Shown here: one piece after another, positions 7,150 through 64,000 of the stretch | How positions within the stretch are numbered: position 1 is the first letter of the stretch | Layout of the letters: each line of letters starts with the position of its first letter | Assembly (NCBI GenBank): GCA_951406725.2 | Contig: OX597815.1 | Coordinates: 97,464,001 to 97,528,000 of the forward strand | Length of the DNA: 64,000 nt | From: Octopus vulgaris | Taxonomy: Eukaryota | Reading direction: 5' to 3' | Translations under genes and position numbers: made by a program | Notes under the pieces: model-generated | What the model was told of the DNA's origin: nothing | Database searches by the model: none | Seen by the model: the letters and a program-made list of their open reading frames with translations, nothing else

Positions 7150-8948
7150 TTAGTATTTTTTTTATTTAGCTTAGGTTGGAATTTATCAATAATTTTCTTT
7201 TCTCTGATCTTTCTCTCGTTCGACCACAAGTTACGAGATGGTTACACAAAGGTATCTGACGTACATCTGGGTCTCTAATTTGCTGTCAGTGCACACGCGA
7301 ACGTTCTAATAGTGATTTTCTAGTCTGACCCATATAAACCTCTTCACAATTCGCGTATTTGCTGCAGTAAATTAAATTCATGCTTTTGCTGTTCATATTT
7401 GCACTTATGAATGTTTTTTCCGGTTTCTGCGTCCATATATTGCCGATAGGTATGGAGTGGTATGTGCCACACCGGCTATCATTGCATTTAGATGCATTGA
7501 ATGATTGGTCTTTTTCGCTTATGCAAAACTTTGCTTTTGCTAATAATTTTTTAAAGTTATTATTCCTATACTAAGAAACATAGCTCGATCCGTTATTATA
7601 TCTTTTAATTCATTAATTTGAGCAATGATTGGTAGATTGGCTTTGGCAATGTTGAAGATATTCTGGTGACGTGGATTGTGTGTCCCTCTAAATAGTATTA
7701 CTTGTTCTTTTGTTCCTCTTCTTTGGGTTCTCCTAAGTTGTTGTATGGGTATTATAGCCCGCTCTATGCCATTTTCTATATATAGAGACGGATATGTTTG
7801 TTTGAGTAAAAATTCTCTAAGTTTTTGTTACTGATATTCGTATCTTAATCAATAGTACAAATTCTTCTGCTTAGGCAGTATGATATGTTGCGTTTTTCAT
7901 GCGGTGGTTTGTACGACTTAACATTTCGGTATTTATGCGTGTCCGTTTGTTTATTGTATATATCTTTGTTAGTGATGGTGTCCTTTTTAATTACCATTAT
8001 ATCTAGGAATTGTAATTTGGAGAGCTAGGTGTATGTTGTTCAGGAGGATAATGGATTCTTCCAGAGTTTTTAGAGATTCTGTCTTGATTATGAAACAGTC
8101 GTCAAGGTGTCTTTTCCAAACCTTTTCAATATACTTTTTTAATTCAGTGCTGAAGCTTTCCTCTACTTCTTGGTAGATTTATTGTTCTCAGTTTCCTATT
8201 ACAGAGTTCGCATAAACGAGAGTAACCTCATTCCCATCACCGTGCCTTTAATTTGGATGTAATTCTTTCCATCGAAGAAGAATGTGCTATTTTCCAGAAT
8301 ACGTTTGTCTGCGTCCAATAGAAATGGCACTGTGAATCATTTGGAAATCACTTCTCTATCTTTTTCCATCCAGTATTTAATCGCCTTTATTCCTAAATCA
8401 TGTGGAATATTGGTGTAAAGGCTTACCACATCAAAACTAAATAAAAGTGAATTTGTTTCTGATGTTTTGTGAAGGCAGGACAGGAAGTCGTTGCCATCCC
8501 GTATCAAACTAGGTATGTAGGTACATATTGGCTTCAAAACAATGTCAACAAAATTGCATAGACGCTGGGTAGGGCATGCTGGATCAGCTATAATAGGTCT
8601 AAGTTTTAAGTCTTTTGTATAGAGTAATTTTATGTAGTTACTTCCTTGTTCTTTTACTGCATGTTGAATATCTTTTGACTGATGTATTTTTGGTAAGCCG
8701 TAGAAGTTGCTGGGTTTTGGCTCGAAATTGCTGATGTAGTCTCTTTCATCATCGGTGAGTTGTGGTATTCTGAAACCAGGTTGTTGATCTTCATGATGAG
8801 GTGATCTAAATTTGAAAGTATTTTGGGTGAGGACCACCTGAAGAACACGACCTTCTGTTGTGAAATATTTTCAAATATAAATCACATCATGAAGGTCAAC
8901 AACCTGATTTCAGAACACCACATCACACCGATGAAAGAGACTACATCA
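7150..8948 (-). mobile_element. Degenerate Penelope-like retroelement (RT + GIY-YIG endonuclease), 5'-truncated with terminal inversion
   Basis: ORF 8337-8837 has FYGLPKIH, LRPIIA and SFDVVSLYTNIP. Downstream broken frames give QIKGTVMG, WKRHLDDCF, linker CNDSRCG and GIY-YIG-like NLIYC..NCEEVYMGQTRKSLLERSRVH (~7260-7380). Confidence 0.9.
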
Positions 8949-32700: not shown

Positions 32701-33762
32701 AGCATTAGTGAAAATTCGAAAAATATATTAAATCTTCTCAAAAACCTCTGTATTTTATAAAATTTTTATTTGAAACATTGATACCTTACGAATTCAACAT
32801 CTGCGAAGTAAATTTCGACCACAATACTTGTTATTCTTTATAATTTAATATATTTTAGATGAAGATTGATTTTAAAAGAACACGTGAAGATTTATAGATA
32901 TGTGTCGCTCTTTATTTGTCAAAGGAGCATTACTTATTCTCATGTATTAACCAGATGCAGATTGATACACTCAAATATACAAAGGTGATTATTTTATAGA
33001 TGCATCATTCTTAAGAATATCAAACATGAAGAGCATGTTTCAAGTATGTATATGTGTGTGTGGGGGGGGGTTGTTTATGTGTGAATTTATGTATGTATAT
33101 TCTCCTCTGCTTTTAATTAAACTCTTCCTCTGAAGAAAGAGCTGGTCCCTATCAAAGATACAATGCTCCATATTTGGAATAATAAGAAAAACAAAAAAAC
33201 AGTGTCACTTTCTGAGCTTGTAGAAAGTCGTGCATATTTCTACATTTCTACTAACAAATTGTATTTGCAATGTGCAATTTAGTTAGGAGACTTCTTTTTC
33301 AGAAAATCCAAACTTATCTAGCCTTTCAGTTAGGCATTTACTCTCAAAACTAAGCGCGCCAGTTATTATTGATATAAATCTAAATTTCTAATCTGGACAT
33401 TAAAGCTAGTGGTTTGGAAGCATATCTCCATAGTTAGCCTTTTTCTTTTTGATTTTGAAATCTATTTTCATATCGGCATGGCAGCTGATGCCTATGACGG
33501 TACAACAATATCAGGCCTGTTAAGCAAACACTTAACAAATGTGTTGATGGGAATGTTCCACCACTATACCTTGTGTTGATATTTGTGTATATATTCAATA
33601 ACGGTGGGATTCTCTACATTTATTCGAGAACAGTCATTTTTACAGATAGTATTGTATATAGTTTTGCGACATCGTCGTGCCGCATAGTGAGGTAGTAGTT
33701 TGCCGACAATTTTGGGCAGCCGCTAGTCACGTGTGTAATGTCTTCCATAGAATTATGACTAT

Positions 33763-34180
33763 AAGGCGGCAAGCTGGCAGAAATGTTAACACGCCGGGCG
33801 AAATACTTCGCGGTATTTCGTCTGCCGCTACTTTTTGTGTTCAAATTCCGCCGAGGTGGACTTTGCCTTTCATCCTTTCGGGGTCGATTAAATAAGTACC
33901 AGTTACACACTGGGGTCGATGTAATCGGCTTAACCCGTTTATCTGTCCTTGTTTGTCCCCTCTGTGCTTAGCATCTTGTGGGTAGTAAAGAAATAAGTAT
34001 TTCGTCTGCTGTTACGTTCTGAGTTCAAATTCCACTGAGGTCGAATTTGCCTTTCATCCATTCGGGGTCGATAAATTAAGTACCAGTTATGCAAAGGTTC
34101 GATGTAGTCGACTTCATCCCTTTGTCTGTCCTTGTTTGTCCCCTCTGTGTTTAGCCCCTTGTGGGCAATAATGAAATAAG
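33763..34180 (+). mobile_element. Dimeric AAGGCGG-type SINE, both units ending in the Tx1-like tail
   Basis: Head AAGGCGGCAAGCTGGCAG, core GCCTTTCATCCTTTCGGGGTCGAT (Meta-domain-like), tail TGTCCTTGTTTGTCCCCTCTGTG twice. TSD AGAATTATGAC (33749) / AGAAATATGAC (34179). Confidence 0.9.
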
Positions 34181-34371
34181 AAATATGACGTAAACATTTT
34201 CGGTTGCATGTTGGAACTCCAAGGTCTTCGTTGTCTGTTTTGTTTATAAGGTATTTCGTATCAGTATCCTGTTCTTAGATTTAACATTCATAGCCAGTCC
34301 AAATAGGAAATGCTGTAGTGGAGACGAGTGTAAGAGAGGCTTCACTTAATACCAATGTGATTGTTTTCTTT

Positions 34372-36999: not shown

Positions 37000-37103
37000 A
37001 AGACAGTTGTATGAACAACAAACAAGTATATTAGTTCGACGCTCGAGAAAATGAAAAATGAAAAAGTCTTTTACATTTCGAGCCTCATCTCTTCAACAGA
37101 AAG
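37000..37103 (-). mobile_element. Hammerhead-like short repeat, degenerate partial copy
   Basis: Minus strand reads CTGTTGA-A-GAGATGAGGCTC-GAAATGTA-AAAG. Confidence 0.45.
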
Positions 37104-37104
37104 G

Positions 37105-38365
37105 CGGATTGCATAGTGGTTAGGTTGTTGCACTCATGATTGAGGGTTCGATTCTCAAACCGGTCTTGGAGCTGAGCTCCTGAATAAACCACTTTATTTC
37201 ACATTGCTCTGCGGACATTTCATCTGGCATGTGGCACATGATGCACCCATACAGATAATGTTGATTCGATGGAGGGAGTGAGCTTATGTGTACACGGCCA
37301 TTTGATCACTATAAACAAATTATCTTTGTCGTTGTTCGGCAAGATATTCTTTCCTTTATTAGCCACTAGAACCTAACATAGAGGGACAATACAGGACATA
37401 TGGTTGGGGTCATACATAAATGTGTGTACACATTTTTAACAATGGTAAGAGGCTAAACATTTCAGGTGGAAACATAAAAACAACAGTGGTACTCAAAAGT
37501 GTGGTATTCTGGGTTGGTCGGGGAAACCCCACAAGCCATGTGAAACCCTGATCGCTAAGGCAAAAGACTAAAAGTTTATGCCCAAGTTAGATCCATTCAT
37601 TCTAAACATTCGTGCAACTTTTACCCATCTTTCCTTAAATTTGCACGAGGGGAGCTCCTCCCACTCCAACCCCCATTTCTTTTTCAAGTGGAACCTGAAC
37701 TAATTAATTAAACCACCGCCGGTGAGAAAGGTGCTTGTTGTTAAAACTTTCACCCGCGACATCCACAGAACCTCTTTTGCAAGTGCAAATCCAGTGAACT
37801 GTGGTCGTTCAGAAAGCGTCGTTGCCTTCAAAGCGAACCCAGGCCACGCACGTCTAAACAACTTAACTTGGGCAAAACCAAAAAAATGATGCTGTGGGAA
37901 TTTCCACGATCAAGTTTTTGTATAAAATATTGATTATTGCTCTTTGAAGATTACCGACCCGAATGGGGTGGTTTTCTTTTAAATCAATGAAGGTGTTGTT
38001 AGTTACGCTGAGCATATTTATGTGAGGTGGAACGTCAGGTGGTGTGTACAGAAAATCTTGATTTCTATAGTTCAGTTTGGGGGGCGTAGCCCTCTTTATG
38101 GCTGGAGGCCATGTTTAGAAAATGTAAACAATAACGTGCCAAAAAAGTACGCTATAAAATTAAAATTAAAATTTGCCCCAAAAAGCCGGAATATTTTAGT
38201 CAAGAAAATTTTGCTTACCAAATAGGTTCAGTTTAAGTGACTACAATACAAATGTCCAAAATAATATTATACCCGTTTGAGTAACAAGAAACTACCAAAA
38301 ACTTACGAGCTCAAAAAATACTTGACTATTCGGCAAGAAATTGCCGAACCCTCATACGTCGTTGC
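37105..38365 (+). mobile_element. CORE-like tRNA SINE split by a 984-bp insertion (37105-37344 + 38329-38365)
   Basis: TAGTGGTTAGG...GGTTCGATTCTC head; the sequence resumes after duplicated TTCGGCAAGA. Uninterrupted relative at 46675-46970. Confidence 0.7.
37345..38328 (-). mobile_element. Internally deleted Tx1/L1-type retroelement (5'-UTR-like segment + ORF2 C-terminus + 3' tail)
   Basis: TSD TTCGGCAAGA (37335-37344, 38329-38338). Minus frame ALAKEVLWMSRVKVLTTSTFLTGGGLIN*FRFHLKKK...FKERWVKVARMFRMN (~37570-37790). Tail TGTCCTGTATTGTCCCTCTATGTT...AATAAAGGAAAGAAT. Confidence 0.8.
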
Positions 38366-40845: not shown

Positions 40846-41279
40846 ACTACTGTGTTTCATTGCAGTAAGTTCCATATTCAAAAGTTGCGTTAGGCTCATC
40901 GAGTACCAGTCATTAGCTGATATCGATTCAATCCTCTCTTCACAAAAGCTGTCGTATGCAATTCTCAAAACAAAAATTGTAAATTCGTTAAAGCCTTTGG
41001 AGAACGAATGAATAATCTCATTGTACATTCCTAATTCGATTATAAATCTCCCATAATCATTGCTTTGTTCGCAAGAACATATCGAGCTTCAGTAATTGCA
41101 TCTAATTTCATAATGACGCATATTATATGTCAGAGGCATTATGTCTCAAGAAGAATTTAGCTTAAAAGATGATGTCAACATTAGCTTTCATCATGCTGGC
41201 GCCGTAAAGAAATTACTATACGCAGTCGTGTCAATAAACTACGTTACCCGGATATATGAAAAATGGTTAATATGAATGT

Positions 41280-41338
41280 TAATAACAATAACAGCAGCGG
41301 CAGCAGCAGCAGCAGGCGGTAGCAGGCGGAAGAAGAAG

Positions 41339-41371
<33 letters not shown>

Positions 41372-41379
41372 CAGCAGTT

Positions 41380-41419
<40 letters not shown>

Positions 41420-41420
41420 C

Positions 41421-41456
<36 letters not shown>

Positions 41457-41592
41457 AGTAGTGGCAGTAGTAGTAGTGGCAGTTGTAGTAGTGGCAGTTG
41501 TAGTAGTAATAGTAGTAGTAGTGGCAGCTGTAGTAGTAGTAGTCGTAGTAGTAGTAGTAGTAGTAGTAGAAACAGGTGTAGCAGTGGCAGCT

Positions 41593-41623
<31 letters not shown>

Positions 41624-41810
41624 AAAAAGGTGTAGCAGTGGCATATGTAGTAGTAATAATAGTAGTGACAGTTGCTGTAGTAGTAGTTGAAGTATTAGCA
41701 GCAGCAGCAGTAGTAGTATGAGTAGTAGCAGTAGTGGCAGCAGCAGTAGTAAAAGTAGTACTAGCGGTGGTGGTGGTGGTTGTGGGAGGGTAGCAGCAGT
41801 AGTGGTATAT
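41280..41810. repeat. Degenerate (TAG)n/(CAG)n low-complexity tract
   Basis: Directly visible. Confidence 0.95.
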
Positions 41811-41834
41811 TAGTTGTTTTGGTGGTTCTAGTAA

Positions 41835-42050
41835 TAGTTTCTATTACAGTTCTCAAATACCAACATTTTCCGGGGACTGGTTTAGTCGACGTCATCAGTC
41901 GCAATAACTGACCGGTCCTCTATTTTATCAGCCTCAAATGATGAAGGTAAAAATTTATTGACGGGTATTGAACTAAACATTAAAAGGCCAGAAAAAAATA
42001 TCACATGTCATTCTTCGGTAAAGCTCTAAATATTGTCATTTTGCTGCCTT
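41835..42050 (-). mobile_element. Diverged AAGGCGG-type SINE
   Basis: TAGTCGA..TCAGT...ATGAAGGTAAAA...TTGAACT...GCTGCCTT. Confidence 0.6.
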
Positions 42051-42568
42051 AACAGTAACCATGATAATCTGAATTGTGGCTCAAGATCAACAATTTGCAG
42101 GAATGAGAGATTAATCACAATACTTTACTGGTACTTCCTTTTATTGACACCGAAATACTGTTTTCTACTATAGGCACAACGCCTGAAATTTAGGAGACTG
42201 GGACAGTCGATTAGATCGACTCCAGTACGCAGCTGGTACTTAATCTATCGACCCCGAAAGGATGAAAGGCAAAGTCGATCTCGGTGAAATTTGAACTCAA
42301 AACGTAAAGACAGACGTAAGACTGCAAGGCATTTCGCCCAGCGTACTAACGTTTCTTATTTCTTTATTGCCCACAAGGGGCTAAACATAGAGGGGACAAA
42401 CAAGGACAAACAAAGGGATTAAGTCGATTACATCGACGCTAGTGCGTAACTGGTACTTAATTTATCGACCCCGAAAAGATAAAAGGCAAAATCGATCTCG
42501 GTGGAATTTGAACATCGACCCCATTGGGTAAGACCGCTAAGCATTTCGCCCAGCGTGCTAAAGTTTCT

Positions 42569-44210
42569 TCTTTCTTTATTACCCACCAGGGGCGACACAG
42601 AGGGGACACCACAAGACATGGGGACATAGAACATTATAATTAAATTTATGAAGGATGAATTAGTACATGAAAAAATGATAATATGAAAGCGATACTAAAG
42701 GCCCCATCCGTTAGCATCACTTTCCTGTCCTTTGGTTTTCACCGTCACTTGAATGTTCATTCCCAATACGAATACCTTCCATATCTATTCTTACTCCGAA
42801 ATACTCCTCCATATTTTCCACGAATTCATTCTTATATCTATCACCTCCCAATTCTCCCTTTCACACCTCACCATAAACTCATCTATTTTCTTCTTTTCAA
42901 TCACAGCATACCTAGTCTCACCAACTTCATACCATTTATACTCTTCCATTAGCCTTTTAACTTCTTTCTGTTCTGTCATAGTACAAATGTTCGGCCTGGG
43001 TTCGATTTCAATCTCTTGTCTGTCTGTATTATTTTTTTCTTTTGTTTTCTTGTTGGAGGGGAGCGGGTGGGTTCACTGTCTGCAGGGAAAGGGTGGGACT
43101 CAGAGGGTATGGGTGGTTTTGAGGTGGATTGGTGTTCTATGTTATTTTCTTTTCCTCTTATTCTCCTCTTCCTCTTCTTCCCAGCTTCTTTCCATTCCTG
43201 TGTATTCTCTTCCTCTTCTACTGTCTCCTTCTCCTCTGGTTTCTGCTCCTCTCTCTGTGGTTCGGAATCCATTTCTTTCACTGGGGGAGGGCAGTAAGCT
43301 CTTATGTGACCCCTCAGGCCACACTTGTAACAACGTGGAGCTCTGCCCTCCACCCACACTCTCATGATCACGTCTCCCAATTTGATGCTTTCCGCCAGGT
43401 CCACCAGTACCTCGTTCTCTGCCTGCACGTTCAGTTCCACTGTTACGCCTCTCCAGCCCTCGGTCTTAACCGAGGCATGGAGAATATCTACTTCCTCCTC
43501 GTGGCCGCTGATCACATCCGCCACAATCCACTCGGCCTCAACGTTTGGGGGCAGTCCCTCCACCCTTACTCTAGTAATTTTTCTTTTTAGATACGTAGGC
43601 AAAAGTGTTACCTTTTCGGATTTCACCGCCTTCGCCGCCATCTTTCTTGCTGCATTCTCACTTTTAAACTGTACCACTACAGTACCATACTTTGATCCTC
43701 GAGTCAGAAAATTAATCTCCTCTTCCGTTCTTCTTAGCGCCTCCTCTATCCACTCCATGTTTACAACTTCTATCTTCTTCCTTTCGCTTGCGAACACCCT
43801 GTATATGATGGTCCTTTTATCGTACCATTCTTTTCTCTTGGGTGTCGGTGCTAGTTCGACCTCACCGCTGTCCTTCTTCATATATTTCTGGTAACTTGGC
43901 AGCTTGGCCAAGTCCACCCCTTTCTCTTCCGCCTTCTTGGTCACTCCGGCATAGGTATAACCCAGCTTCATTCTCACTGCCTGTTCCAGTTCCTCATCAG
44001 TCGTGGACAAGTCTGATAGGGACTCATAGTCCATTTCCTTCTGTCTGACAGACCGAAAACGGCCGCCCGAACAGAAAAAGTGTAACGCGCAGAACCAGCG
44101 AAACGCGAAACCGCATCAACGACGTTCAAAATTTCTACAACAACAACAATTCTTTTTGTTCTTTTTTACCGAATTTTACGAGCGTAAAAAAACACAACCG
44201 ACGTCAAACG
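42569..44210 (-). mobile_element. Full-length ORF1-only (HAL1-like) non-autonomous Tx1/L1-type retroelement
   Basis: 16-bp TSD with 1 mismatch, ~175-nt 5' UTR, ORF1, no endonuclease or RT motifs, AATAAA at 42580-42575 and tail TGTCTTGTGGTGTCCCCTCTGTGTCGCCCCTGGTGGGTAATAAAGAAAG. Confidence 0.8.
42976..44034 (-). CDS. L1/Tx1-type ORF1 (gag-like nucleic-acid-binding protein with CCHC zinc knuckle), 352 aa; probably extended to ~42718 before two frameshifts
   Basis: RRM-like region, VRVEGLPP, RVWVEGRAPRCYKCGLRGHIRAYCP (CX2CX4HX4C), then acidic and basic (KKRKRR) tracts. Adjacent frames continue NTDRQEIEIEPRPNICTMTEQKEV...MEEYFGVRIDMEG. Confidence 0.85.
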   Translation of the reverse strand: MDYESLSDLSTTDEELEQAVRMKLGYTYAGVTKKAEEKGVDLAKLPSYQKYMKKDSGEVELAPTPKRKEWYDKRTIIYRVFASERKKIEVVNMEWIEEALRRTEEEINFLTRGSKYGTVVVQFKSENAARKMAAKAVKSEKVTLLPTYLKRKITRVRVEGLPPNVEAEWIVADVISGHEEEVDILHASVKTEGWRGVTVELNVQAENEVLVDLAESIKLGDVIMRVWVEGRAPRCYKCGLRGHIRAYCPPPVKEMDSEPQREEQKPEEKETVEEEENTQEWKEAGKKRKRRIRGKENNIEHQSTSKPPIPSESHPFPADSEPTRSPPTRKQKKKIIQTDKRLKSNPGRTFVL

Positions 44211-45699
44211 GCGTGCTAACGTTTCTGCCAGCTCACCGCCTTTCGATACCGAAATATTGAAAGGCAAAGTTTATCTCAGCAGCATTTATGCAAAGTGGTT
44301 TAGTAAATATTGTTGTCTCCAGTACTGCTTGGTACTTTAGTTTATGGGGAGCTATAATTGCATTATTATATAAATTACTAGAAGATAAAAGAATATACGT
44401 GTTATCGCTCACTAAGTTAAAAGAAAATATGACTGAACCGATATTGCATTTTCTGGAATAAAAGTGACGTCATCTTCTGTCGTTCATTAGAATTTTATAA
44501 TGACGAGGAGGTAACAAAGAAACCTGGGCGCTATTCTAATGAATATAATTTTGAGCAAGACATTAGCTTTGTCATATGAACACAATTTTTTTTTTATGAA
44601 AGCGAAACATGTCTATGAATAAAACAGAATTGTACAAAACCTAAAGTTTTAACATTGTTGTGCAAATGGAAAATCCATGTTACCTCAAATTATTGGAAGT
44701 CGTACATTATTGAATTTAACTCGAACAAGCTCTGAATTTTGTCAAATCATTCAGAGTTACAACACAACTTTAAGTTTTCACCTCGACGACGACAGAATAA
44801 ATCGATACAGTTACATAAGTCATTGTTCCTTATATAGGCACCAGGAATGAAATTTTTAGACGGGGAATAGCTTATTATCTTTTAACAGCGATTGATAAAT
44901 CGCTGTTTCTTATACAGGCATCAGGACCGAATTTTTAGACAGAGAAGAGCTTATTATCTCGTTAAGTGTTTAACAGCTACCACAATATGTCGGTTCCGAG
45001 CGGTTGAAATGTAAATTTAATCTCTGCGCAATTTGAACACAGATTTTAAATAGGTTAAAGAAATGTCACAAATATGTGTTCGTACACACACACACACACA
45101 CACGACAAGATTGTTATTTAGTCATGTGTTCGTAATTCATCACCTTTGTAACACTGTAGTTTCCTTGTGCATGATGAAAATTACTAATTATATCAATATT
45201 ATATAATATAAGGCAAAACTAAAATACAGCGTTAATTCGACCGAACAAGTGAGAGAGATGGAAGCGTAAAATTAATACAAATTTATTCAAATATCGTCAA
45301 AATAATTTATAAGTATTAGCATGTGGTTTGGCTGACACATCTGGCTTCTAATATTTTGTTTAATTCACCAGAACATTTTGAATCGTTTAACGCCGTCAAA
45401 CGTATATGCTCTTTAACGAAGTGGTAGTTGTTTTGGATCGATTTGCTTGAAATTGCGGGTGATCATAATGGGTGTATTAGGCTCCGTATATTTGCATCTA
45501 CCCCAGCATCGCCCTCAATAATAATAATAACAATAATAATGACGACGACGACGACGTTGATGTTTTGCTCAATACTTCAACGATTCTAATTCGTCGTCCA
45601 AGTCATTTGATTAATAATGGTTTCAAATTTTGCCACAATGCCAGCTATTTAGAAGGAGAGGCTAAGTCGATTAGATCGAACTTTGAACTTTAACTGGGT

Positions 45700-60020: not shown

Positions 60021-61069
60021 TTTACTAGTTTCAGCTCAGAGCTGCGGCCATGCTGATGCACCGCCGTTTTGTGCTACACTGTTATTACGACGAACCTCGT
60101 CTAATATGTGGCACTTGGTGAAGAATGGAGTTTGATATAGCTACTCACATTTGCACCTCTTGCCGTGAGGTAGTTTCATCTGGGACTCTTGACAGGAAGA
60201 TGTCCAGCTTTGATTTGAAAACCGCTACATCTACTTTGTGCAAGTTCCTCAGACTCTTTTTAGAGAATTTTAAAAAGCTGTGGGCCGTTGAAACCCAGGC
60301 TGTTACAGAGGCTAGTCCTGAAGCGTGATGGCATTCCTGGGATCTTTGGCACTATGCAGTGTCGTCCCGTTCTAGCATTGGTGTAGCTTACAATGCCAAA
60401 ATTTGGTACAATTCCTTCCAGGATCTTCCAGACATATATTACTGCATACCTCTCCCGTCTTATCTCCAGGGAGTAGAGTCTTAGCTGTTTCAACCTTTCC
60501 CAGTTGCTGAACTGTTGCCAAGAGACGAACTTCTTTGTGAATCTTCTCTGGATTGCTTCAAGGTCCGCTGTTAATTTTACACTGGTGGATGACCATAACT
60601 GTGAGCAATAATCCAGGCGGCTGAGAACGAATATCCGCCAGAGGACCATCATGGTTTCCTTATCTCTGGTCCTGAATGTTCTTAGGATCCACGCAGCCAG
60701 TCGTCTGCACTTTGTCGCCATCCTGGTAATGTGCACTTGGAAAGAGGTATCATCACTCATGTCGATACCCAGGTCCCTCACAGACTTAGGCTCTGGGGTG
60801 GAAATTCCCTGTAGACAAGTGTATCCTGTAAGTTTAATATTCAGTTTTGGATGCTGGTAGCGCAGGGTCTGGAATTTTTCAGCATTAAACTGCATATTAT
60901 TATCCTCAGCCCATCTGTTGATTGAGTCCAACTCTTGCTGCAGGTGTGCAACATCGCTGGGGTTCTGTATTTTCTGCGAGACATTCGTATCATCTGCATC
61001 GCTGGCCAGAGAGGCTATCCCGGCATTTGAGGGCATATCTGAGAGGGCCACTATAAAAAGCAGTGGTCC
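60021..61069 (-). mobile_element. 5'-truncated CR1-type LINE
   Basis: ORF 60260-61072: GPLLFIV..DADDT..MQFNAEK..VRDLGI..SRLDYCSQLWS..RRERYAVIYVWKIL. 3' tail CAGCATGGCCGCAGCTCTGAGCTGAAAC. Confidence 0.92.
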
Positions 61070-61213
61070 CATATATATATATTATGTATACACATATACA
61101 TATATATTATGAATATATATGTGTGTATACATATATATGTATATATATATATATATTATGTATACACATATACACATATGTTATGCATATATATGTGTGC
61201 ATACATATATATG

Positions 61214-61263
<50 letters not shown>

Positions 61264-61334
61264 TGTGTATATATGTATGTATATATATATATATATGTAT
61301 ATATATATGTATATATATGTATATATATATCCTT

Positions 61335-63480
61335 AAATCCTTAAAAATGTTTTAGCCCGAAGGCTGCGGCCATGCTGGGGCACCACCGCTGAATGAGCTA
61401 CACTAGTTTGTGAATCCACCTCTGATACGTGGCACTTGATCAACAAGGGAGTTCGATGCTGCTGCCCGCATCCGTGTCTCCTGTCGTGAGGTAGGTTCAT
61501 CTGGGACTCCCAACAAGAAGAGATCCAGTTTAGTTTTAAAGAAACCCACATCCACACCATGTAAGTCTCTCAGGCATTTAGGGAGGATGTTAAAGAGATG
61601 TGGTCCTCTGAAACCCAAGCTGTTGCAGTATCTGGACCTGTATTTTGATGGTGATGTTGGAATCCTTGGCACCACGCAGCGGCGCCCCGTTCTGCGGTTG
61701 GAGTAACTTTGAATGCCAAAGTTTGGGACAAGACCCTCCAGGATTTTCCAGATGTATATCACTGCATATCTCTCCCGCCTCCGCTCCAGGGAGAAGAGGT
61801 TTAATACCTTCAGTCTTTCCCAGTAGCTGACATTTTGCATTGTGACGATTTTCTTTGTGTAGCTTCTCTGAATTGCTTCGAGTTCTGCTGTTTGTTTTAT
61901 ATTGTGTGGTGACCAAAGTTGGGAGCAGTAGTCCAAGCGGCTGAAGACGAATGTTTTCCATAGGACCATCAGTGTCTCCTTCTCTCTTGTTCTGAAAGTT
62001 CGGAGAATCCATCAAGCTAGCCGTCTGCATTTTATCACCAGATTAGCAATATGCATTTGGAAAGATGCATCATTGCTCATGTCAATGCCCAGGTCACGCA
62101 CTGATTTTGACTCAGGGATTGCAATTCTTCCTGGGCCAGTGTATCCAGTTTTCACGTCATTTACCTTTGTGTGCCAGCAGCGCAGGACCTGGAACTTACC
62201 TGCATTAAACTGCATGTTGTTGTCCTCAGCCCACCTGTATATTGTGTCCAGCTCATGTTGCAGATGCGCAATATTTTCAGGGTTTTGTATTGCGTGGGAG
62301 ACTTTTGTGTCATCTGCATAGCTAGCAAGGGTGGTCATCGTAGCAACTGAAGGCATGTCTGAAAGGGCCACTATGAACATCAGTGACCCCAAGACAGTGC
62401 CCTGTGGGACACCGCTTGTTATTTGCGTTTCCTTGGAGATGGCTCCATTGCTCACAACTGCCTGTTTTCTGTCTTTTAGGAAGTTGTGCAGCCACTCTCC
62501 ATGTTTCCCGCCTATGCCGAGACCACGCAGTTTGTGACAGATCATACCATGGTCGACTTTATCAAAGGCTTTTGCAAAGTCGAGATATATTACATCCACA
62601 TTTGAGCCATTTAGTAGCTGTTTCAACACCCAGTCATAGTGTTGCAGGAGCTGTGTTAGGCAGCTTCTACCTGGTCGAAATCCATGCTGGGTGTCAGACA
62701 GCAAGTCATTTTCTTCAAGGAACATGATTAGTTTCTTACGGACTATTCGTTCCATGACTTTGCTGATGTGTGAGGTCAGAGAGATAGGCCTATAATTTTT
62801 AGCATCTGCTCTGCTACCTCCCTTATGGATAGGGCATATTACCCCCTCTTTCAGTTTGACTGGGAGCTTACCACTTGCAAGAAAGCTCTGCAAAAGAAGC
62901 TGTAGCGGTTTTGCAAGGGCTCGTTTGCACGATTTGAGAAGGATCGCTGGGAATCCATCAGGTCCAGTAGCTGAGTTTGTGTCAATCGCATCAATGGCTA
63001 GTGTGATATCATCATCTTCGATGTTGATGTACTCAATTTTTGTCTCTTTGGCCGCAGGTAAAGTGGCAAAGAATTCTTCTGGGTTGTTTACTTGCATGTG
63101 TCCTAGAGGTGTAGTGAACACACTTTGGAACTGTTCGTTCAGTATTTCACTTATCCTCGTGGGATTTCCTGTGAGAGAGCCATCTTTTTGGAAGAGAGGT
63201 CCTATTCTCTGGTGCACTGTGGCTGTCTCTTTGGCAAACTTAAAGAAAGCTTTAGGGTTTGATTTTATATTTTCTATTACCCAAGCTTCTTTATCTGCTC
63301 TCTCCTTTTCATGGGACTGATGTAGACTTTTCTCAGTTTCCATTAGCATTCTTTCGAGCCGGGACTTCTCACCACTTTTGGTGTGCTTGCTCAGGCGGTT
63401 TGCAATCCTTGTCCGTCGTCTCATAAGAATCCTCCTTTCTCTAGGGATCCTGTTTTTGTTCTTGTGTGTGCTGGCCCTGC
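61335..63480 (-). mobile_element. 5'-truncated CR1-type LINE with nearly intact RT frame (one in-frame stop at 62012-62014)
   Basis: [51 protein letters not shown]. ORFs 62012-63484 and 61403-61969 are in the same frame; no endonuclease domain is retained. Confidence 0.95.
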
Positions 63481-63577
63481 ACACATATATGTATATATAT
63501 GTATATATATATATGTATGTATATGTATATATATATATATGTATATATATGTATAAATATATATATATATATGTATG

Positions 63578-63608
<31 letters not shown>

Positions 63609-63627
63609 ATGTGTGTGTGTATATATG

Positions 63628-63686
<59 letters not shown>

Positions 63687-63749
63687 GTATATATATATGT
63701 ATGTATATGTATATATATATATATATGTATATATATGTATATATGTGAA

Positions 63750-64000
63750 GGCGCATGGCTCAGTGGTTAGAGCGTCGAGCTTACGATCGTGTGGTTGTGA
63801 GCTCGAATCCCGGACCGGGCTGCGTGTTGTGTTCTTGAGCAAGGCACTTTATTTCACGTTGCTCCAGTTCACTCAGCTGTAGAAATGAGTTGCGACGTCA
63901 CTGGTGCCAGGCTGTATCGACCTTTGTCTTTCCCTTGGATAACACTGGTGGTGTGGAGAGGGGAGGCTGGTATGCATGGGCGACTGCTGGTCTTCCATAA
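63750..64000 (+). mobile_element. CORE-like tRNA-derived SINE (octopus OR-type), runs off the window
   Basis: GGCGCATGGCTCAGTGGTTAGAGCGTCGAGCTTACGATC..TCGAATCCC..GTTGTGTTCTTGAGCAAGGCACTTTA. Confidence 0.9.

Follow-up and report, generated by a model that had tools for sequence, protein, structure and literature searches.

Preferred insertion sites for Tx1-like LINE derivatives and SINE copies within an octopus SINE

The nested block

The 64,000-nucleotide stretch of the Octopus vulgaris genome analysed here (assembly GCA_951406725.2, contig OX597815.1, positions 97,464,001 to 97,528,000; hereafter the window) contains a block of nested repeats on the minus strand, between window positions 42,143 and 44,277. 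The block is made up of copies of a short interspersed element (SINE) and of an element which carries only the first open reading frame (ORF1) of a long interspersed element (LINE). The coordinates of these features are given in Table 1. Loci elsewhere in the genome are referred to by our own labels.

Read along the minus strand, the block consists of a SINE head, a 16-mer, the ORF1 element, a second 16-mer, a SINE unit, a third 16-mer and a further SINE. An earlier note on this DNA had proposed this order, and had also proposed that the ORF1 element and the SINE unit end at the same base of the SINE head. The coordinates agree with both statements, and the second and third copies of the 16-mer have one mismatch each. 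Allowing up to three mismatches the 16-mer is present seven times in the window, against 0.25 matches expected. The tail of the SINE unit reads ...GGGCAATAAAGAAATA and is related to the tail of the ORF1 element.

The earlier note placed the whole block inside an older SINE, with its own 15-bp target-site duplication, to give four levels of nesting. The imperfect agreement of the two copies of this duplication and the short match to the older SINE (Table 1) mean that the outermost level is only probable; a fourth level is plausible but weak as judged from the sequence. Contigs from four sequencing runs break at the repeat edges at 42190 and 44218, and they neither show nor contradict an empty allele.

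Table 1. Features of the nested block and related elements in the window
Position	Strand	Feature	Remarks
44244..44277	-	Older SINE body remnant, likely recipient of the whole block	Matches the SINE body at 79% over 38 bp (BLAST, E 7e-4); resumes as AAAAGGAAGTACCAG past the other end
44242..44256	-	Outer target-site duplication, 5' copy (probable)	TATTTCGGTATCGAA; 12/15 bases identical to 42143-42157
44227..44240	-	SINE head, first 14 bases	Exact 18-mer head motif present 77,794 times in the genome
44211..44226	-	Site 1 16-mer, copy 1 (5' duplication of the ORF1 element)	AGAAACGTTAGCACGC
42569..44210	-	ORF1-only non-autonomous LINE derivative (HAL1-like), 1,642 bp	3' tail of the LINE clade, ends ...GGGTAATAAAGAAAGA; without reverse transcriptase or endonuclease
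42976..44034	-	ORF1 frame, 352 aa from the first ATG	Tandem RRM-like domains and a CCHC zinc knuckle are predicted
42553..42568	-	Site 1 16-mer, copy 2	1 mismatch
42357..42552	-	SINE unit with LINE-like CAAT tail (...GCCCCTTGTGGGCAATAAAGAAATA), without its own head	Tail resembles the LINE tails of the clade
42341..42356	-	Site 1 16-mer, copy 3	1 mismatch
42158..42340	-	SINE body, tail of the other type; likely the copy originally targeted	Same layout at other loci
42143..42157	-	Outer target-site duplication, 3' copy (probable)	TATTTCGGTGTCAAT
37336..38240	-	Decayed member of this LINE clade, at a fixed target site of its own within another repeat	
33749..34190	+	Second SINE array: TAGT-tailed unit ending at site 2, then a CAAT-like tail	BLAST, genome-wide counts

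Enrichment of tails at two sites in the SINE

The genome (2.8 Gb, 227 contigs) was searched with exact patterns for SINE tails of the CAAT and TAGT variants, which are present 15,054 and 43,098 times; the patterns miss tails with a C at one downstream position, so the true totals are higher. These numbers are pattern matches, not all of which are independent insertions. The CAAT tail is joined to the head site (site 1) in 1,409 cases and to a second site in the SINE (site 2, GTATTTCGTCTG) in 414, whereas the TAGT tail is joined to the head site in 148 cases and to site 2 in 18,434. The tail variant is thus strongly associated with the site, CAAT with the head and TAGT with site 2 (odds ratio 424). 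A control position in the same SINE, which resembles the loose motif described below, gave 18 matches across four tail variants and none with the CAAT tail. Controls with reversed patterns gave no matches.

The earlier note had asked for the flanks downstream of such tails to be compared genome-wide with the expectation from SINE abundance. AGAAW follows 6,744 CAAT tails, and 1,409 of these (21%) run on as the exact 13-mer of the head. The expected share is about 0.3%, given 77,794 exact heads in a genome with some 2.5e7 AGAAW sites, a number estimated from 187 kb. The excess over the 5-mer expectation is 66-fold, or 33-fold if heads are twice as many, and the preference therefore goes well beyond both the abundance of the SINE and the 5-mer, which supports the strong site preference that the note had supposed. 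At site 1, adjacent units resemble each other no more than randomly chosen units do (0.856 vs 0.872, 47 pairs).

The end of the tail and the start of the target are reverse-complementary by eye at site 2 (GAAATA..TATTTC) and at the target of a LINE family represented at 37.3 kb in the window (AAGAAA..TTTCTT). At L262 (G000:C22, about 32.19 Mb) an old LINE 3' end carrying a SINE-like tail runs into the SINE head in reverse complement; this is an insertion near site 1 in the opposite orientation.

Unrelated elements at the head site

Elements other than the SINE are also found at the head site. The tail AAATC joined to this site gave six matches, all of them non-SINE: five ORF1-only elements belonging to two families and one internally deleted LINE. 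Two further elements and the one in the window bring the total to nine non-SINE elements, at eight loci, that end here. Both 16-bp duplications are seen for six elements at five loci (the window, L264 twice, L265, L335 and L337). At L264 two different ORF1-only families are stacked at site 1 in one SINE, which has its own outer duplication; this is the architecture found in the window. This arrangement is not producible by recombination between SINEs. Unequal crossing-over, which the earlier note had named as an outcome that would refute its proposal, is disfavoured at site 1, where neighbours are not alike, and it cannot place unrelated ORF1 elements.

A sister ORF1 copy at site 1 (L236/L265, G000:C18, about 10.358-10.360 Mb) is hypermutated on the sense strand, with 143 A>G changes against 9 G>A and 12 T>C. 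In the first 1,200 bases the figure is 154 of 157 changes, and the changes are rarest after G (23/172). ADAR has a neighbour-base preference which matches this context. The copy looks like ADAR-edited RNA that was written back into the genome, an assembly artefact being the alternative, and it points to an RNA step. Weaker hypermutation is present at L013 (64 A>G).

The ORF1-only passenger

A genome search for the family of the ORF1 element gave 88 matches from 27 scored candidates, many of them in head-to-tail arrays. Over 240 aa the ORF1 shares 34% identity with that of a LINE from the same arrays which also encodes endonuclease and reverse transcriptase (RT). LINEs of the L1/Tx1 group have an ORF1 with an RRM-type domain and a CCHC zinc knuckle, and a structure model and an alignment assign this layout to the partner elements. 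The model (pLDDT 82) has a weak match to tandem RRM structures (E about 1e-4, TM about 0.3). The residues of the CCHC knuckle are invariant across 20 aligned ORF1 sequences; the zf-CCHC profile match in the window's ORF1 (E 0.065) is below the cut-off. Some sister copies have longer ORF1 frames of about 495-525 aa, and the 352-aa frame in the window may therefore be shortened.

The passenger is HAL1-like in that 1.65-kb units are repeated as a family, carry ORF1 without ORF2, have a LINE-type 3' tail and are flanked by duplications. It is not a HAL1 in the strict sense, which implies an origin from mammalian L1, as its ORF1 is homologous to the ORF1 of the Tx1-like LINEs of this genome. The four full-length copies at site 1 whose 5' ends were read all start CGTTTGACG; sisters elsewhere differ.

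Three tandem ORF1 elements end at site 1 at L336 (G000:C7, about 4.985-4.990 Mb), where the 5' side carries about 115 SINE bases rather than 16, which suggests a template switch or a long homologous joint. At L172 (G000:C18, about 17.68 Mb) a chimera within an array joins the 3' untranslated region of a LINE to the 3' half of an ORF1-only element. L290 and L292 are internally deleted derivatives of a LINE family, family II, which keep ORF1 together with the first about 30 and the last about 65 codons of ORF2. Internal deletion of family II is a second route to ORF1-only passengers.

LINE families of the clade and their targets

Pieces of two copies of the partner LINE ORF2 match the Pfam families Exo_endo_phos (E 7e-14), RVT_1 (E 8e-31) and zf-RVT (E 4.5e-9). 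This is the ORF2 layout of the L1/Tx1 group, with an N-terminal APE endonuclease, an RT and a C-terminal cysteine-rich zf-RVT region, and many LINE copies have an open endonuclease-RT frame of 1,132 aa. The best match of ORF2 in the PDB is human L1 ORF2p. An alligator protein named 'transposon TX1 149 kDa protein' shares 41% identity with the RT (228 bits, BLASTP), and human L1 scores 110 bits by phmmer, a different program from the one used for the alligator score. Every local family of sufficient length falls in a single clade (99/99), two of the 12 local copies having been excluded as too short. The tree was built without L1 or curated Tx1 references and 'Tx1-like' is therefore the safe name.

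A target preference has been defined as more than 20% of flanks lying in one sequence type (PMC4494074). LINE III, LINE I and the family at 37.3 kb all exceed this value. The 3' ends of LINE III lie directly at site 2 of the SINE in 28 of 29 cases (29/30 by script, one of them through an intervening SINE tail), and a duplication is seen for copy L320. LINE I ends at ACATGGAGGAAAGC in 22 of 29 cases (30 loci, one without a tail) and builds mixed arrays of LINEs and ORF1-only elements; successive duplications in the arrays L215, L219 and L229 share locus-private variants. The tails of LINE I and LINE III, like that of some family II copies (see below), are similar to the SINE tail; the 3' tail is shared as in a SINE-LINE pair.

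Ten of 14 relatives in the family at 37.3 kb share one end point, within a different repeat. The earlier note had cautioned that this element used another target. It did so, but this target is also fixed and the element therefore adds to the examples of targeting. At least four different targets are used by sister families, which does not support the note's idea of one endonuclease with one site.

The element at 37,336-38,240 (-) sits in the opposite orientation in the 3' part of a different SINE-like repeat, which starts near 37,100 (+). The copies L181-L230 represent a young LINE family with many open 1,132-aa ORF2 frames in tandem arrays of about 5.26-kb period. Its target is ACATGGAGGAAAGC, and the sequence around this target resembles a decayed ORF1 from the clade itself.

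Solo insertions of the SINE

Insertion of the SINE outside arrays was followed in 291 SINE tails, of which 145 were solo, 95 of these had the head in reach and 58 had a detectable duplication; most of the sample lies in the first 20 Mb of contig C1. Most duplications (54/58) are 10-18 bp in length. The 5' copy starts within one mismatch of GGTAT, TATAT or AGAAA, motifs which were picked after looking at the data, in 45 of 58 cases, compared to a background of 9.6% and to 0/58 just upstream. The motif is found at the upstream copy of the duplication and therefore belongs to the target DNA. The loose preference for AGAAA suggested by the earlier note is present in these insertions, alongside GGTAT and TATAT.

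A first impression that the 3' copy contains RNA-templated bases was not upheld on the larger set, in which the 3' copy is closer to the motif 14 times and the 5' copy 8 times (p 0.14). Tail slippage such as AAGAAATAAGAAATAAGAA is seen at three junctions. In tRNA-derived SINEs (SINE2) the head is homologous to a tRNA and carries the A and B boxes of Pol III promoters. ARAGORN and Rfam gave no match to the SINE head, which contains TGGCAGAAACGTTAGC and GTTCAAATTCC; by eye, against the consensus, we take these to be A-box-like and B-box-like.

A proposed mechanism

We consider it probable that the elements at these junctions were inserted by target-primed reverse transcription, in which proteins of Tx1-like LINEs act in trans on RNAs that share their tail, with family-specific nicking and staggered cuts about 16 bp apart. 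In the window, an ORF1-only passenger and a SINE unit would then have been stacked at a single base of the SINE head by successive insertions. The LINE protein would bind the shared tail in trans and insert a copy after making two nicks, one before AGAAACG (or GGTATTT) and the other some 16 bp beyond. When a SINE copy enters a head, its 5' end would be joined through pairing with the homologous target, so that no second head is formed and the site is restored for a further insertion; the upstream 16-mer would in this case come from the incoming RNA. Later elements could stack upstream at the rebuilt site, and the ORF1 element, which is outermost on the 5' side, was likely inserted last. Dimers and local duplication would likely add to the array counts afterwards, mostly at site 2.

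Several results weigh against this mechanism. A plain duplication in place predicts that the upstream and downstream 16-mers share variants, yet 57 pairs from SINE-in-SINE junctions, many of them at loci picked for a near-majority downstream copy, do not do so (T/T 1, discordant 12, p 0.62), and non-majority bases are common to both 16-mers in 2/38 cases against 0.98 after shuffling. The independent target-site duplications that the earlier note expected thus fail this test for SINE-in-SINE pairs. A second full head after the 16-mer was seen at no examined locus. The lack of variant sharing and of a second head fits joining of the 5' end by homology, or dimers moving as units, and L040 looks like a 5'-truncated dimer which was inserted in one piece, with an outer duplication.

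The site-2 arrays, which are long and have a 184-bp period, contain neighbours that are more alike than random (23/111 pairs at >=95% identity vs 5.5%), and local duplication or the spread of multimers therefore inflates site 2. Four loci considered as a source lineage for dimers (L380, L382, L393 and L398) were rejected, as their common flanks identify them as copies of one larger duplicated stretch; they represent one event, and the counts are therefore not all independent insertions.

No intact LINE dedicated to the head site is present in the first 30 of 48 matches, which comprise 3 ORF1-only elements, 23 SINEs (by script) and 4 SINE-like or unassigned sequences, none with an adjoining ORF2 end. 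Family II, a relaxed family, has 2/30 of its 3' ends at the SINE head, and seven of its 13 closest copies start AGAA. The window's own ORF1 family has two of 49 ends there, the others being at sister elements (22), the LINE I site (11), another site (5) and other flanks (9); both families are below the 20% level at the head site. A search through the 5' junction found no LINE dedicated to the head site among three matches, one of which is a plain SINE, and a search for LINEs with the exact SINE tail gave SINE variants in 24 of 25 matches and one decayed LINE end. The family II copies L295 and L314 end CTCTATGTTAGCCCCTTGTGGGCAATAAAGAAATA, which is nearly the CAAT tail of the SINE. On these sequences, family II is likely the best candidate for the mobiliser of the head site, if this is not an extinct relative.

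Alternative explanations

Most SINE-SINE junctions could instead derive from a few dimeric or multimeric sources which moved as units, with true site-specific insertion restricted to the LINEs, the ORF1-only elements and founding events. We regard this as possible, though not as the expected outcome. It accounts for the lack of variant sharing between paired 16-mers, for the truncated dimer at L040 with its outer duplication and for the unusual likeness of neighbours at site 2; the tight linkage between tail and site fits linkage within the source elements, and dimeric and multimeric SINEs have been described (PMC10702118). However, it leaves unexplained the unrelated elements which occupy the same base with duplications, as well as the LINE III ends at site 2 (28/29), and the arrays vary in the number and order of their units, the downstream unit having either tail type. 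Moving multimers are compatible with target-primed insertion as a secondary amplifier. Events at the DNA level, such as unequal crossing-over and slippage, or chance insertion at AGAAA in a SINE-rich genome, are a very improbable explanation of the whole. The arrays of 184-bp period, the raised identity of neighbours at site 2 and the duplication of some matches together with their flanks are of this kind, but the 33- to 66-fold excess over the 5-mer expectation, the 18 matches at the control site, the lack of likeness between neighbours at site 1 and the non-homologous inserts with duplications at five loci are not. DNA-level events are refuted for the ORF1 insertions and remain a contributor to the length of site-2 arrays.

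The choice of target might also lie in the RNA. The flank carried by a run-on transcript would pair with the nicked DNA end, and a lineage would in this way remember the site of its source copy. We think this unlikely as the general rule. A difference of four bases in the tail tracks different sites, the full-length ORF1 copies at site 1 have a common start that their sisters elsewhere lack, and the slipped tails at three junctions are in keeping with such pairing. RNA-target pairing has been proposed for SART1Bm and R1Bm (PMC7265360), and co-transcription is said to strengthen targeting (PMC4494074). Against this, the predicted asymmetry between the copies of the duplication is not significant, the motif is already present in the target in 45 of the 58 solo insertions, and different LINE partners at different times would explain the link between tail and site equally well.

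Target-primed insertion in trans could be extended to a closed loop, in which the landing pad of the LINE is its own passenger SINE, each SINE-into-SINE insertion rebuilds both pad and promoter, and the choice of site is inherited through the RNA (the tail variant and the co-transcribed flank) and not through the endonuclease alone. This extension is speculative and we doubt that it holds in full. If true, it would be a self-reinforcing, RNA-borne memory of the target, which turns an interspersed repeat into tens of thousands of arrays.

Relation to known systems

The closest known relative of the octopus system is that of the crocodilian Tx1-Mar LINEs and SINEU, whose target is the Mariner DNA transposon (Kojima 2015, PMC4494074). 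As described there, Tx1-clade LINEs have the same target, within another abundant repeat, as the SINEs that they probably mobilise, different families have two preferred positions, tandem SINEs sandwich a target-site duplication and the specificity of the SINEs varies (13-90%). The octopus system differs in that insertion is into the passenger SINE itself. Its SINE copies arrive without a second head, its sites are also used by ORF1-only passengers, and the variant of the SINE tail goes with the site. The same paper summarises Tx1 of Xenopus, which inserts in Tx1D, together with Keno (U2), Kibi, Koshi and Tx1-9_AMi, which inserts in Harbinger. These are likewise LINEs of the APE type whose families each have their own targets, in repeats and multicopy genes; its summary names no SINE target for them, whereas the octopus clade has at least four targets in one genome.

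HAL1 (half-L1) is described as a non-autonomous LINE derivative encoding only ORF1 (PMC5753468). The octopus passenger shares this property, but HAL1 derives from mammalian L1, while the octopus element derives from a Tx1-like clade, ends in the sequence tail of the LINE and forms stacks at defined sites. Highly frequent SINE multimers and homogenised local arrays have been reported for Dip/B1 multimers, Alu and the Squam satellites (PMC10702118). The octopus arrays resemble these, but the reported cases consist of full-length units or satellites and the octopus units start at a fixed internal base which is shared with LINE insertions.

An octopus SINE was the subject of a 1994 paper cited in PMC4758252. 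A 2026 annotation of octopus repeats lists 13 recently active L1-Tx1 families, and the words 'target' and 'nested' are not in its main text (PMC13282606). Literature listings and the starts of abstracts gave no report of a SINE-targeting LINE or of Tx1 targeting in octopus; Repbase, Dfam and supplements were outside this search and may hold these families.

Sequence-specific LINEs are models for how nicking enzymes gain and switch targets, and are candidates for targeted gene delivery. The octopus clade includes strict and relaxed families, at least four targets and open frames within one genome, which opens swaps of endonuclease and RNA flank to direct test. Where a LINE targets its own passenger, the usual relation of SINE and LINE is reversed. 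Such targeting may explain tens of thousands of multimeric SINE copies in the octopus genome, and matters for repeat annotation and for the dating of SINE bursts.

Other features of the window

A long degenerate (CTA)n/(TAG)n trinucleotide array lies just downstream of the block, at 41,240-41,840. The window also contains fragments of unrelated RT-encoding elements at two places on the minus strand. One is at 60,260-63,766 and is 27% identical to the RT of the clade over 62.3-63.0 kb; the other is at 8,337-8,870, its frame having been judged by eye.

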